64,000 bases of DNA from contig NC_042997.1 of NCBI RefSeq assembly GCF_006345805.1, positions 158,534,001 to 158,598,000 on the forward strand. The letters run 5' to 3'. Shown piece by piece: positions 7,337 through 29,799 of the stretch. Below the pieces are notes generated by a model. It saw only the letters and a list, made by a program, of their open reading frames with translations, searched no databases and was not told the DNA's origin. Source of the DNA: Octopus sinensis. Its lineage: Eukaryota. Position numbers and translations under genes: made by a program. Positions within the stretch are counted from its first letter, which is position 1. Every line of letters starts with the position of its first letter.

Positions 7337-7546
7337 ATATGTGACAATTATTCGGCAGCCATGATAAAACTCCGAGTTTCGGATGTCGGGGTGGAAATCC
7401 ACGCCGCCATCTCTTCGGTTATCCGGCCATCGGAAAGAAATGCATTTTCCCCATGGCCGGATAACCGAAGAGATAGCGGCGTGGATTTCCACCCCGACAT
7501 CCGAAACTCGGAGTTTTATCATGGCTACCGAATAATTGTCACATAT
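7337..7546. mobile_element. 210-bp palindromic (fold-back) element with a hammerhead motif in each arm
   Basis: 94-bp arms (7337-7430 / 7453-7546) with 2 mismatches; centre AAATGCATTT; abuts a (TA)n array. Confidence 0.85.
7460..7520 (+). ncRNA. Type I hammerhead ribozyme motif (U4C core variant); mirror copy on - strand at ~7363-7423
   Basis: Stem I GATAA/TTATC; core CCGAAGA; stem II GAT..CGG.GTGGA/TCCAC.CCG..ATC(C); GAAA; near-palindromic stem III ACTC-G-GAGT; cleavage triplet GUU at 7513-7515. Confidence 0.65.
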
Positions 7547-7548
7547 AA

Positions 7549-7642
7549 AATATATATATATATATATAATATATATATATATATATATATATATATATAT
7601 ATATATATATATTATATATATATATATATATATATATATATA
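7549..7642. repeat. (TA)n microsatellite
   Basis: Read directly. Confidence 0.95.
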
Positions 7643-8048
7643 CATATGCCGTACTAAATTAGAAATAAATTTCATACACGCAAATGGTTTTATCTTTGAT
7701 AACTCACTATCTTCATTAACGAGAAGACTTTATTCACACCCATAAATATTTTTGTTTAAAAATAATTTAAAAATCAGAAATGCTTCAAATGTCACTAAAT
7801 TTAATCATACATAAATACGAATTTTAACTTAACTAAATGAAAAATTGACATGCATTAGTAATCCTACCTATTGTCTTAGTTTTCAAATACTCATCATTAA
7901 CAATATTAGGAGGATCCCCAGCTACTCATCAAATAAAAAAAAGTTGATAAAGAGATTCCTTTATACAATGCTTACAAGCTACATACATAAGACTCAACTC
8001 TACAAACTTTGCGAAATGTTATTTTTTGCAAAGAAAATATTTAAAAAT

Positions 8049-8233
8049 TCCCTTTGCAAGGCGATACGAATTTGAATTTTATCATACAGAATATGAGTGT
8101 TATTTGGTATAAAGAGGTACCCTATCATAGAAATTAGAGGAAATAAAGTAGACAATAGTGGAGTAGAATTTATGGATGATAGTGTTTTCAGGTAAATGGA
8201 CAGAAATCGATAAAGTAACTTGGTATTTTACAA
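8049..8233 (+). repeat. 185-bp inverted copy of 10582-10766 (inside the decayed Dong LINE)
   Basis: Reverse complement match with one visible mismatch. Confidence 0.9.
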
Positions 8234-8709
8234 ATATTTTTCAAATCTACATCATATCCGTAACTGTGAGTATAAATCTCCCAAGGGGCTTCGTCAAGTA
8301 TATCGTAATTTTCTCACACCTCCTCCACATAGCATTTTTTTATCATTGTTTGATCGTTCCCATAAAAGCTTAGTAAAATTGTATTGTATTATTGCAATAT
8401 TATTTCTCCACACACACACACACACACACACACATATATATATATATATATATATATATATAATGTATTTGTCATGACTTGTATTGGTATTTTGTACCGT
8501 ATTCCACTTTCACTCACAACTCCACTTCTACCAAAAATAATATGTCTCCTGACCTACATCAACCAATCATAGCCTTCATTTATCACAGTTTCATAATATT
8601 ATGTTCCACCATATCACCTCAATCCTCTTCGATTTCAATTTCATCCATAACCTTTCATTATTTCATTTCAGCAAATTGTATTTGCTTGAAAATCTATATA
8701 TAAATATCC

Positions 8710-25582: not shown

Positions 25583-26424
25583 TCACTAATTAAAACCCAT
25601 GAAAAGGAACTGACAACCAAAGAGATTGATTTCCTAACAAACTTTAAATGCAAACCTAGCCTTTTCTATGGTCTGCCAAAAATTCATAAAAGTCAAATTA
25701 TAAATGAAACCATTAAAAATCACCAAAGACATACATACACACACCTAATCCGGGGGACCTAAAACTACGACCCATTGTAGCTGGCCCAACCTGTGAAACA
25801 CACAGACTAAGTCTACTTATGGACATCCTCTTGAAACCCTTCCTTAAACATATCGATAGCCATATCAGAGATGACTTAGATATGTTAAACCACCTTCCAA
25901 AAAAAACCAAGGAAGAAACAATCCTGGTTTCATTTGATGTAGTCAACTTGTATACCAGTATACCTCATAATTATGGACTGGAGGCAATACAATTCTGGTT
26001 AGACCAATTTCCGGAAGAAATACCAAAAAGGATCAGTAAAGAATTCATTACTAAATCAATTGAATTCATCCTACACAATAACCACTTCATGTTTGACAAT
26101 ACATTTTACCGTCAAAAATCCGGAATTGCTATGGGTACAAGGGCAGCACCAGTCATTGCGAACTTAACAATGGGATACATGGAAATAATCATTTACCAGG
26201 AATCTCTATCAATCTTTGGAAACTCCCTCTCTCAATACATAAAAGAGAATTGGAAACGATTCCTAGACGATTGTTTCATTCTCTGGAATGAAAACATAGA
26301 TAAACTCCTAAAATTTAAAAACCTATTGAACAGCATAAACCCAAATATACAGTTCACAATGGAATACAACCAAAAGGAGCTCCCGTTCTTGGATATACTA
26401 ATTAAAAAATTAACCTTAAAATAG
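25582..26424 (+). CDS. PLE reverse transcriptase (right arm, 5'-truncated; frameshifts at A-runs near 25715 and 26405)
   Basis: ORFs 25493..25762 (3' part) and 25819..26424 carry the same RT motifs. Confidence 0.9.
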
Positions 26425-27338
26425 AAACAGACATTTTTTACAAAGCCACAGACGCCAAACAATACCTTCTTTTTAATTCATGCCACCCAAGACACACTAA
26501 AACAAACATCCCCTTCAACCTTGCAAGAAGGATATGCACAATAGTGTCAGAACAAAATACCAGGAACTTTAGACTGCAAGAACTCAAAAACACCCTAATT
26601 GACAGACATTACCCAGCTCAACTCATAGAGGATGGGATCAGACGTGCAACAGAAATCAACATAGAAACTTTAAGAAAAGTTCAACACAACAACACACCTT
26701 CCCCGAAAATACTACCTTACATATCTACATACAACCCCAGAAACAAAGAAGCCTTCACCATCATCACCCAGAATTTACCAATACTTCATAAAAACCCAAA
26801 ATTAAAGGAAATTCTAAACATACACCAAATCATTAAAAGCTACAAACAGCCTAAATCACTTAAAAAGATTCTCACAAAGGCAAAATTGTCTTCTAAAATT
26901 ACGGATGCAAAAGTAAAAAAATGTGGTAGATCGAACTGTGCAACATGTCCTAACCTATTGGAAGGATCAGAATTCTTCTTTAAAGAGGGACAGAAATTTA
27001 AGATCAAATCTAACTTTACTTGTGCCTCTGAAAACATAATTTATGTTATTAAATGCTCGGGCTGCCACCAAGACTACGTGGGTTCCACGGGACTATCACT
27101 CAGGCGCAGATGCACACTGCATCGACAACAGATTGCATTCCCAGAATATAGAATGATACCTTTTAGTGAGCACATTGAGAAATGCGCAAAGCAACTACTG
27201 CCACAATTTTTAATCTTCCCATTTTACCAATGTGCTTTCGGATCATCAACACAAATGAGACTGAACAAGGAAACATTCTTCATTGAAAAGTACAAACCCA
27301 GACTCAACCATCCGAACATACTGACACAGAGAAATTAA
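26420..27338 (+). CDS. PLE thumb/linker + GIY-YIG endonuclease (right arm)
   Basis: IETDIFYKATDAKQYL..SCHPRH, Cys-rich linker CGRSNCATC (Neptune hallmark), NIIYVIKC..YVGST..RRR..H, and E..FI..Y.P.LN. Confidence 0.9.
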
Positions 27339-27474
27339 CAAGGAAATGGAAAAAAAATTTTTTAAGCGATTATCTCCCCTACACCGGAAAAAATCACTCA
27401 CTACCTCCCCTTATTTAGAAATCTCCTGGAAATAAAAACAACGATAATTCCATGCAATATAAACATAACGTCAC

Positions 27475-27514
27475 AAGAAATTTGAAAAGCTACACGCGAA
27501 ACCGGTAATTTCTT
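27475..27514 (+). ncRNA. Minimal type I hammerhead ribozyme (U3-A8 variant) in the PLE 3' pLTR
   Basis: Stem I AAGAAAT/ATTTCTT; core TTGAAAA; stem II GC-TACAC-GC; GAA; palindromic stem III ACCGGT; GUA at 27505-27507. Confidence 0.75.
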
Positions 27515-29799
27515 TAAAAATTTTAAAATTATGTCATTTTAAGGAAAGGAAAAAAATTTTTCCAATATTCTCCAGACATTTTGACACAAATATATATATT
27601 TTTTAACATTTAAGCCTTCTGTCGTTTTTTCACACTTTACTATTTTCTTATATATATATATATATATACACCTACCTACCTACCTATATATATATATATA
27701 TATATATGAGAGAGAGAGAGAGAGAGAGAGAAAATAAAGAGTGAGTTACAAATGCCGCGTGCAGTAGAGTAAACAACATTTTATTATCTTTATAGTAACA
27801 GTAGATTGCTTGTTAGTAGTATAAGTGTGCATGTGCACGAGTGTGTACCGTAGTGTGTACTGACGTTCATGTGACTTTTAAATTGCTAATTCTCTTTCAT
27901 TTCGGCTTTCCTGCTTCATAAATCTATCCATATTTTTTGAGATAAATATTGCATTGTATTGCTTCACAATTAGTTCTCATATGAATGTTCTGTACTAAAA
28001 AGCCTTATATTGTGATATTAATTTTTCGCTCTCTTTCAGTCTCCTCTGCTAATCACGACTTTATATTTATCGACTAATGTGCTTCGTGCTACAATATTAA
28101 AGTGCATTCTACTAGTATGTTTACAGTGTACTTTAAAATGTTTCTATGAACTCTGAAATGCTGTCTATTAATTGCTTATTTAGGTACCTATTGTATCATG
28201 AGTCCTTCATTTGTACATGAATAATTTTCACGATATTGATTTATATTTTGTTTTGATTAATTTTGCTTTTATCTTTCGTTTACGTTTTAGCTAATTTTCT
28301 TTGCGTGTTGTTGATTAAATTTCAAAGCGTAAAATCACAGTGTGGGGAGAGATGTGGGAGGAAGAGGTGAACTTCAATTTCGATTCATCAACGATGTAAA
28401 TTTAATAAGTATCCTTAAGCATTTTTATTTCTTACTTTCTTAATATTTTTTATCAAATTAATTTTCATGTTTTAATGCTTTATTAACAATTAACTGATAC
28501 TGCCATCCACACATTTGTTGATTTCCTTTTACAATTCCGGGACAAAAGCTAAATCTGTTATCTTTTATCTCGAGCGATTGCTATTCTATTTCTTTACTGA
28601 TTTTAGTATTACTTTTGCGGTTCATATAAGTGATCATTAATTTAAAAAATAATTTATGAGAGGAAATGCACACGATTAGTTTTAAATAATAGTAATTAAA
28701 TATTTTATCCATACAAATATAACTATTTCTTGAAATAAAATTACAGAATATATACTGTAATAATGAGAATCTTACGTTTTTTAAAAGTGTCCGGTCACGG
28801 AATAAGATTTAGTCTTCATATTAACATTTTTCATGGGGTCTGGTGTATGATGTACTCAATACTCTAAAAGGAAATTTTTTATGTTTTTTTTGTTTTTTCT
28901 GACAAGTATTTCAAAATTATCATGATTACTAGATATATATATGGCTCAATTAATAAGAGGTGATATCTGTAACTGTCAAAATGCTGGTGTCAGGAATCAT
29001 GTCAGTCGAACACAGATTCTCGCGAATCTTAATAAAAATACTATGCGCGTTACAAATGCTTGTATAAATCCTGGATAGATTAATATGTACCTTAAATATT
29101 TGTCTGTAAGATAGAGGTAAAGTCTAAGACACAGTAACTTCTAGTAAACTATATAGAATAAAAAAAGAAAGAAAATTTTCACATTATAAAGTATGTCTCC
29201 CCTAGCTTTACAAACCTGAATAAGTCAATCGGACTATGATTGCTCCCCAAAATAGAGGTGCTTAATGAATTAATCAGAATAGCTTGGTTGTATATACCTA
29301 GCATACCAACACCCACAGTGCTACGTTATAAAATGCCAAGTTGCAAACATATTTCAACAACATTCAACAATCGACCACTTCATGCATTTTGAACGTTGAA
29401 ACGTGAAACGAAAAGCAAAATTGCTAGTCTTCGTCTGTAACAATTTATTCAACTTTTCGAATCAAATTATTGCATTTAAAACGAGTGAGTATACAATAGA
29501 AAACATATGATAAAGAGAGCTATTATTTTTCAAATGCTGGATAGCCAATACAAATTATGTTTATATATCGCTTCTGGTATCATAATGTAGATCTTAATGC
29601 ATGGAGACAGTAAGTAGACATATTGAGATGGCAATTTCACAGAATTTCATACAATTTCCAAATAAATATTGCATAATTTATTTTTTCTACAAATTCAATA
29701 ACTTACTGTTTCTGAAAACACAGCGTAGGTGGTATGGACAATTTTGATACATCCCTCGAATAAGAACTGTAAGGTATATACATTACAAAAATATAAAAT

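Follow-up and report, generated by a model that had tools for sequence, protein, structure and literature searches.

Palindromic insertions are known from endonuclease-positive Penelope-like elements (PLEs). Their insertion units comprise an inverted 5'-truncated copy plus a one-sided tail of 30–40 bp (PMC8557442), and palindromes at the inverted junctions were interpreted as the result of self-priming, with antisense RNA rather than cDNA as the proposed template (PMC3846280). Dual minimal hammerhead motifs have been found 100–700 bp apart on opposite strands (PMC4209133). The anole PLE protein, a predicted dimer, cleaves both target strands and extends them in vitro, and its two start sites of reverse transcription (RT) delimit the tail (PMC11167929). 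For the R2 protein, junctions formed by snap-back of the cDNA were described (PMC11371274). The structures reported here correspond to the known Penelope insertion footprint; they are ordinary and probably do not represent a new class of elements.

The analysed window (the whole stretch of 64 kb) was searched by arm-to-arm comparison. This revealed that four palindromes, E1 to E4, are real (Table 1). The arms differ by 2 substitutions in 94 bp in E1, by 7 in 165 in E2 and by 2 in 44 in E3. The 22-nt centre of E1 is imperfectly paired, and the centres of E1 and E3 are nearly loop-free. In E4 we found no substitution and three one-base homopolymer indels in approximately 2,073 bp. The arms of E5 are 85.7% identical. 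Over all units the divergence of the arms ranges from 0% to 27% and the spacers from 1–22 to 369 nt. E1–E4 are indeed mutually unrelated in sequence, as claimed before (z ≤ 2.2 in all six pairs); E5, by contrast, is a relative of E4 (z 6.9). Six or seven head-to-head units lie inside 21 kb, and in all six units that have a longer arm it is found on the same side.

Table 1. Features of the analysed window.
Feature	Position	Strand	Remarks
E0	6585..7245	.	Missed by the earlier note; two direct repeats (6585-6730, 6944-7089) plus one inverted copy (7087-7245); both ends at (TA)n
E1 putative one-sided extension	7259..7336	-	Reaches a (TA)n run; boundary placed by eye
E1 palindrome	7337..7546	.	Arms 7337-7430/7453-7546; both arms carry a hammerhead motif; (TA)n at the right end
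Solo non-palindromic relative of E0	8682..8947	+	70% identity to E0
E2 one-sided extension	13298..13377	-	To (TA)n; ATG-initiated open frame of 36 codons
E2 palindrome	13378..13720	.	Arms 13378-13542/13556-13720, spacer 13; hammerhead motif with long stem II
Older decayed PLE copy	16041..18269	-	82% identity with E4 across 1.35 kb; DKG and N-terminal region kept; 3' end lost
E5	18270..19049	.	Partial pLTR plus inverted 5'-truncated copy; arms 18270-18468/18838-19035, spacer 369; right end abuts SINE-like repeat
E3 putative one-sided extension	20346..20501	-	Limit set by eye; 64-codon open frame runs through motif into extension
E3 palindrome	20502..20598	.	Arms 20502-20545/20555-20598; G3-C8 core hammerhead motif
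E6 old inverted repeat	20960..21329	.	Arms 20960-21106/21174-21329, 72.7% identity, spacer 67; no hammerhead found
E4 one-sided tail	23455..23491	-	~35 nt; homologous to leader of related copy; ends at (TA)n
E4 long arm	23492..25581	-	5'-truncated PLE: RT from residue ~172, linker CX4CX2C, GIY-YIG, 3' UTR; repeat 23492-25564, spacer 17
E4 mirror hammerhead motif	core 23665, H17 23640	-	Found by both descriptor scans and the first descriptor
E4 short arm	25582..27655	+	Same 5'-truncated PLE in inverted orientation; 0 substitutions vs long arm; ends at (TA)n run
E4 minimal type I hammerhead motif	27475..27514	+	U3-A8 core, palindromic stem III, H17 at 27507

Judged from its sequence, E4 is composed of two 5'-truncated PLE copies that meet head-to-head with an overlap of 2 nt, and the spacer is sense element sequence belonging to the long arm. 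The coding region begins at residue ~172 of relatives of 753–758 aa, which leaves about 585 codons. The DKG motif (positions 135–136 of the relatives) is absent and both arms contain frameshifts; some of the indels may be assembly errors, the 5' truncation is not. E4 possesses no full-length intact ORF, and its earlier designation as an autonomous palindromic Penelope element had to be abandoned. The RVT_1 domain scored above the cutoff, and the GIY-YIG domain gave a weak match below it (E 0.012). E4 and the copy at 16–19 kb are collinear with RT/GIY-YIG proteins of 753–772 aa and share 50–63% identity with their C-termini. Both show the hallmarks of endonuclease-positive PLEs, i.e., RT followed by a C-terminal GIY-YIG in one ORF and a pLTR or partial tandem with an inverted 5'-truncated copy; a minimal hammerhead lies in the pLTR (in both arms of E4, decayed in E5), and a one-sided tail in the 30–40 bp range is present. 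The linker motif CX4CX2C was found in the ORF at 26406–27338 and in five of five relatives among those listed. The tail of E4 matched the leader of the 16–18 kb copy, located between its pLTR and the start of its ORF, at 26 of 35 positions. This score was reached by none of 2000 shuffles, and the match was the best non-self match among 1276 pieces of the window.

The region 18270–19036 had been regarded as a separate older element. Instead, it is the inverted 5' end of the 16–18 kb PLE copy and was rejected as a stand-alone element: a part of the pLTR of this copy (18270–18468, minus strand) is joined to an inverted 5'-truncated copy (18466–19049, plus strand) with the GIY-YIG end and the 3' UTR. 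Comparison with E4 revealed a 3-nt overlap at the junction. E4 and E5 both consist of 5'-truncated PLE sequence joined at 2–3-nt overlaps, and in each of them just one arm has a tail or continuation.

The additional unit E0 carries a 43-nt extension on one side and a single degenerate hammerhead-like motif (core 6864, minus strand), which fails in stem I. Its junction shows no exact overlap; 2–3 nt are obtained only when one mismatch is allowed. Neither of the two family pairs in the window, which do not include E1–E3, shares a common centre: those of E4 and E5 differ, and E0 has none in common with its solo relative. E6, proposed as a probable older case (20958–21330), is confirmed as an inverted repeat, but the descriptor scans detected no hammerhead in it, and it was rejected as a hammerhead-bearing unit. 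It is spanned by single-copy contigs in two runs.

Hammerhead motifs were searched for with Rfam, as the earlier note had proposed, and with descriptors. The Rfam scan of the whole window yielded 148 matches and that of positions 6500–9000 yielded 26, none of them a hammerhead; the matches obtained were of the hairpin type only and below the gathering score. A first descriptor was too strict and picked up the E4 pair alone. Four of the eight arms of E1–E4 passed scan A (null 0.64 ± 0.82, maximum 3 in 50) and five passed scan B (null 0.32 ± 0.55, maximum 2 in 100), a contrast that is inflated because the descriptors were tuned after the elements had been seen. Taken together, six of the eight arms display the core, stems I and II and palindromic stem III of a predicted minimal type I hammerhead in one of the two scans, and all passing matches lie within E1–E4. 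The motifs of E1 have a U4C core with H17 at 7515 (plus strand) and 7368 (minus strand). E2 exhibits U-U at 10.1/11.1; its left arm passes (core 13491, H17 13414, minus strand), and its right arm, which has U4C, fails both scans. In E3 an additional base precedes stem II and the left arm is complete (H17 20502, minus strand). The right arm ends exactly at H17 (20598) without the 3' strand of stem I; its hammerhead is incomplete because the arm stops at the cut site. We rejected this end as proof of cleavage, since it was seen in one of four short arms and the others end 31, 36 and 148 nt past H17. The motif of E5 is merely a decayed homologue of that of E4. The proposed outward-reading hammerhead in each arm was confirmed for these six arms, but not for the right arms of E2 and E3, for E5 or for E6. 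Each of the four unrelated families has its own core variant of the minimal hammerhead, and these variants could be assayed.

Five of the eight homology-defined ends lie at most 4 nt from (TA)n, and only 4.4% of the window is within 10 nt of such a run. That the long ends of E1–E3 adjoin (TA)n was rejected as circular evidence because their limits had been set at those runs. The (TA)n flanks mask any target-site duplications. Read depth was compared in 4 of the 24 listed runs over positions 7300–27299, a comparison dominated by a SINE-like repeat at 21.4 kb. The summed contig depth of E4, which is not equivalent to copy number, increased about 3–5-fold from the bin of the centre (61–85 thousand) to the 3' bin (294–359 thousand) in all three DNA-like runs rather than being flat. 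The bins with E1, E2 and E3 reached repeat-level depth (143–931 thousand versus about 45–70 for single-copy contigs), and the E2 extension showed such depth at 13361–13362. One further run, guessed to be RNA (it may be DNA), contained contigs nearly identical to E4, one of 666 nt with no other letters and one gap and one of 266 nt from 23492; these contigs are not counted as a sign of expression.

A comparison with 120 proteins gave no matches in the window outside E4 and the 16–18.7 kb copy, and hence no homology of E1–E3 to PLE ORFs. Within the window E1–E3 had no partner among pLTRs of coding PLEs, and metagenome contigs scanned for exact patterns of E1 and E3 gave no matches. E1–E3 would be the same product as E4 from other families, truncated very early, with an inferred PLE origin. 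Their source would be coding PLEs or non-coding pLTR derivatives.

We consider it probable that the palindromes are head-to-head 5'-truncated PLE ends, each made once at insertion by fold-back of the cDNA and its copying. An intact member of the family would supply the RT/GIY-YIG protein, which would nick AT-rich or (TA)n DNA and prime cDNA synthesis on PLE RNA at a site downstream of the hammerhead. This cDNA would halt early, its 3' end would pair with 2–3 bases further back, and synthesis would then run back toward the 3' end of the element. Finally, the new strand would be joined by repair to the target end on the far side, and the opposite strand would be filled in. Since a minimal hammerhead is present at each PLE 3' end (pLTR), one outward-reading motif per arm is expected in any such product. 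Arms free of substitutions, as in E4, are expected from a single template, and the short spacers in 4 of the 7 units favour priming in cis. The earlier alternative, by which PLE reverse transcription gives rise to the palindromes as fold-back products, is supported, and the structure is a known one (PMC3846280, PMC8557442, PMC4209133). Against cDNA snap-back stand the E0 junction without exact overlap and the lack of PLE ORF homology in E1–E3; among the joints and contigs listed, which the SINE-like repeat dominated, neither centres of other E1–E3 copies nor the centre junction of E4 occurred, and snap-back alone also does not explain the fixed 30–40-nt tail.

The tail would be accounted for by twin priming, a possible though less likely route. 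Here a dimeric protein would cut both strands, and two cDNAs, started at RNA sites 30–40 nt apart and primed from the two target ends, would be joined at a microhomology; the products would still be one-off PLE insertions. The in vitro activities of the anole protein are in line with this route, as are the one-sided tail of E4 with (TA)n at both ends and the 43-nt extension of E0. However, for two independent cDNAs a difference of just 17 of ~2,080 nt, as in E4, would be unexplained unless their synthesis is coupled. Moreover, E2 and E3 have short arms whose ends lie 302 and 258 nt away from the nearest (TA)n run, and the putative extensions of E1–E3 (about 80–155 nt) exceed the tail length.

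We regard it as improbable that E1–E3 are non-coding passengers of the Penelope enzyme, transcribed and reinserted as whole hairpins with a fixed centre, the E3 arm recording reverse transcription of self-cleaved RNA in vivo. Their repeat-level depth and the almost loop-free centres of E1 and E3 would suit such elements. On the other hand, the extensions are one-sided, the spacers vary, neither in-window family pair (none involving E1–E3) has a common centre, and a full hairpin RNA is predicted to bury the ribozyme and the RT start region. The proposed new class of hairpin-form elements found no support in these asymmetric units with variable spacers and no common centres, nor in the non-flat depth of E4. 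If true, it would establish palindromic non-autonomous retroelements as a class and provide in vivo evidence for PLE hammerheads cutting the template, which PMC11167929 did not find.

That the 4.16 kb palindrome E4 is an assembly or long-read fold-back artefact is very unlikely. Its arms differ solely by homopolymer indels, and neither its centre junction nor fold-back joints occurred among the short-read contigs and joints listed (2679 joints and 9496 loose ends were unlisted). But the flanks are not mirror images, the left tail is element-derived, the junction retains sense sequence with its overlap, and the arms of E1–E3, E5 and E6 contain substitutions. Least credible is the suggested role as a self-cleavage switch or as host-selected sources of dsRNA: read-through RNA would form long hairpins (predicted MFE -70 to -238 kcal/mol for E1–E3) and PLE-derived small RNAs are known in Adineta (PMC3846280), but freeing the ribozyme region would cost a calculated 51–119 kcal/mol in five of five tests, so that no near-balanced pair of folds is expected, the antisense arm is always transcribed first, the arms decay with age from 0% to 27% divergence, and minimal hammerheads cleave poorly and chiefly as dimers (PMC4209133).

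Read as one-off insertions by cDNA snap-back, the palindromes are of small import, a clean example of a known structure with an open mechanism. Young symmetric insertions like E4 offer material to separate snap-back from twin priming, an undemonstrated step of PLE integration.

Animal non-LTR retrozymes (bioRxiv 10.64898/2026.07.22.740005) are likewise short, non-coding and pLTR-related, with a type I hammerhead, and E0 resembles them as a ~360-bp unit in partial tandem. However, their definition requires head-to-tail repeats and one motif per unit, whereas E1–E3 are single, head-to-head inverted pairs and the partial tandem of E0 has one degenerate motif. In the R2-protein system (PMC11371274) the 3' end of the cDNA likewise primes on cDNA before 5' joining, an analogy only, drawn from another retroelement class and an engineered system. 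The motifs found here, from sequence alone, share palindromic stem III, the extra base before stem II and the U3-A8 core with the metazoan PLE minimal type I hammerheads, among which dual opposite-strand motifs 100–700 bp apart also occur (PMC4209133). U4C in E1 and U10.1-U11.1 in E2 differ from those hammerheads and are natural variants in PMC3088659; the G3-C8 core of E3 differs as well, and a designed double mutant of this kind partly rescues cleavage (PMC11167929). Neptune/Nematis-type PLEs have a Zn-finger-like linker between RT and endonuclease (PMC8557442). E4 and its relative resemble them in RT before GIY-YIG, the CX4CX2C linker, which conforms to their CX2-5CxxC pattern, canonical DKG in the relative and (TA)n targets, the clade assignment being based on motifs only. 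The closest match is provided by the endonuclease-positive PLE insertion units (PMC3846280; PMC8557442), with the same head-to-head layout, junction palindrome, tail at one end and microsatellite targets. Their arrangement of two direct copies plus one inverted copy is matched by E0 and E5, whereas E4 differs by its almost perfect symmetry over 2 kb and E1–E3 by putative extensions of more than 40 nt.

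Inverted repeats were recovered at each of the six places where the earlier note had put them, and the palindromes are real and of an ordinary, already known kind. A seed census of the window gave 11 inverted clusters, nine of them between 6.6 and 27.7 kb; the remaining two covered 17 nt near 50 kb. E1 to E4 are mutually unrelated in sequence, as had been claimed (z ≤ 2.2 in 6/6 pairs). E5 is related to E4 (z 6.9).

Palindromic units (E0-E6) and other features of the window; hammerhead positions in standard numbering
Feature	Position	Arms or extent	Core variant
E0	6585-7245	two direct repeats, one inverted copy	
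E0 relative, solo	8682-8947		
E1	7337-7546	2 substitutions per 94 bp arm	U4C
E2	13378-13720	7 substitutions per 165 bp arm; spacer 13 nt	U-U at 10.1/11.1
E3	20502-20598	2 substitutions per 44 bp arm	G3-C8; extra base precedes stem II
E4	23492-27655	arms ~2,073 bp, 0 substitutions, three one-base homopolymer indels; spacer 17 nt	U3-A8
E5	18270-19035	arm identity 85.7%	
E6	20960-21329	arm identity 72.7%	
E2 open frame, minus strand	13298-13395	36 codons	
E3 open frame, minus strand	20346-20545	64 codons	
Inverted duplication	8049-8233 / 10582-10766	185 bp, 1 mismatch, 2.3 kb apart	
Repeat, two inverted copies	11669-11742 / 12565-12638	88% over 74 bp	
Decayed transposase-like frames, minus strand (presumably Tc1/mariner type)	19441-20290		
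Very abundant repeat	19048-19390, 21402-21760; also near 1610, 34887, 54740		

An Rfam search reported no hammerhead in the window. Using hand-made descriptors, 4/8 arms of E1 to E4 passed one scan and 5/8 another (6/8 in union), against 0.64 and 0.32 matches per randomised window, respectively, a contrast inflated by tuning the descriptors once the elements were known. All passing matches of the window scan lay within E1 to E4, whose motifs are of the minimal type I hammerhead kind and have a palindromic stem III. Of the core variants, U3-A8 and the additional base preceding stem II are known from Penelope-like element (PLE) motifs (PMC4209133). U4C and U-U occur naturally (PMC3088659), and for G3-C8 a mutant with partial rescue has been described (PMC11167929). 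Of the hammerheads postulated for each arm, six passed a scan. The E2 right arm passed neither scan, and the short right arm of E3 breaks off precisely at the predicted cut site H17 (window 20598), where stem I cannot form; the remaining three short arms extend past that site by 31, 36 and 148 nt. E5 and E6 are inverted repeats as proposed; as older hammerhead palindromes they fare less well, since in E5 the E4 motif survives as a decayed homologue and scans of the window yielded none in E6. No hammerhead was found in the 185-bp inverted duplication, which lies in single-copy depth with contig breaks at its edges in several runs.

The E4 protein matched RVT_1 and, weakly, GIY-YIG. Among longer proteins, 198 relatives were found; of the 120 listed, two are named from Octopus bimaculoides (identity 59-60%), which makes a cephalopod source likely. 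Eight of these 120 were aligned singly. Relative to relatives of 753-758 aa, E4 starts at residue ~172. The DKG motif (135-136) is gone and both arms are frameshifted, so E4 is not the autonomous Penelope it was taken for; part of the frameshifts may be assembly errors. Its CX4CX2C linker points to the Neptune/Nematis type (PMC8557442). The A run at 26403 and 24735 is in both arms one base below many family contigs, through either single-template inheritance or assembly error.

Measured against an 82% relative (16041-17381), the E4 spacer belongs to the element in sense orientation, with 2 nt of overlap at the junction. About 35 extra bases in the left arm match the relative's leader between pseudo-LTR (pLTR) and ORF at 26/35, a match reached by 0/2000 shuffles and the top non-self match among 1276 pieces. 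These bases are the PLE tail.

E5 is no separate older element. It consists of a partial pLTR belonging to the decayed E4 relative at 16-18 kb and an inverted 570-bp 3' end, with a junction overlap of 3 nt. Its right end adjoins a copy of the very abundant repeat, which we take to be SINE-like and which reached a summed depth of 19-30 million in the 21.3-22.0 kb bin. E0, absent from the earlier note, has a one-sided extension of 43 nt; an exact overlap was looked for at its junction and not found. The left extension of E2 has repeat-level depth (13361-13362). E0, E2, E5 and, with putative one-sided extensions, E1 and E3 fit the E4 plan. Five of eight ends defined by homology lay no more than 4 nt from a (TA)n run. 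Since E1 to E3 show no homology to a PLE ORF within the window, their origin is read from motif, layout and target. The open frames of E2 and E3 extend out of the hammerhead region into the one-sided extension, as expected if the pLTR overlaps the PLE ORF start. The seven units are confined to 21 of 64 kb (6585-27655; p for the span about 0.006-0.017, post hoc). E0 to E5 all have their longer arm, or the continuation, at the low-coordinate side (6/6, two putative; p about 0.03). A host transcript or a TE-rich island may underlie the clustering and shared orientation.

The most likely origin is target-primed reverse transcription with fold-back of the cDNA. Synthesis would start at AT-rich DNA and halt early; the cDNA 3' end would then pair with 2-3 bases further back and be extended back along the cDNA, followed by repair. 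This is favoured because arms are identical and loops short. Twin priming, in which a dimer would start cDNA synthesis at both target ends, using two start sites on the RNA, accounts better for the tail and has in vitro support (PMC11167929). That each palindrome was made once, by one or other of these routes, we regard as highly probable. Spacers vary (1-22, 13, 17, 57, 67 and 369 nt), a shared centre was seen in 0/2 in-window family pairs (E4/E5 and E0 with its solo relative, neither including E1 to E3), and E4 depth was about 3-5-fold higher at the 3' end than at the centre in 3/3 DNA-like runs; together these point to one-off products. The depth rise has the profile of 5' truncation, with the caveat that summed contig depth does not measure copy number. 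Contigs from four runs were placed on 7300-27299, with the signal dominated by the SINE-like repeat. Fixed-centre hairpin passengers primed at the ribozyme cut are quite improbable, and no report of such PLE passengers was found in the literature searched (largely open articles without supplements). The self-cleavage switch of the earlier note is unlikely, since in 5/5 folds the release of the ribozyme region from its hairpin would cost a predicted 51-119 kcal/mol.

Comparison was made with published work, including PMC11371274, PMC6765202, PMC13282606 and bioRxiv 10.64898/2026.07.22.740005. Paired minimal hammerheads on opposite strands, 100-700 bp apart, are described in PMC4209133, inverted PLE junctions with palindromes and self-priming in PMC3846280, and a one-sided tail with an inverted 5'-truncated copy in PMC8557442. 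Junction palindromes, inverted copy and tail are common to the PLE insertions of the latter two papers and to the window.
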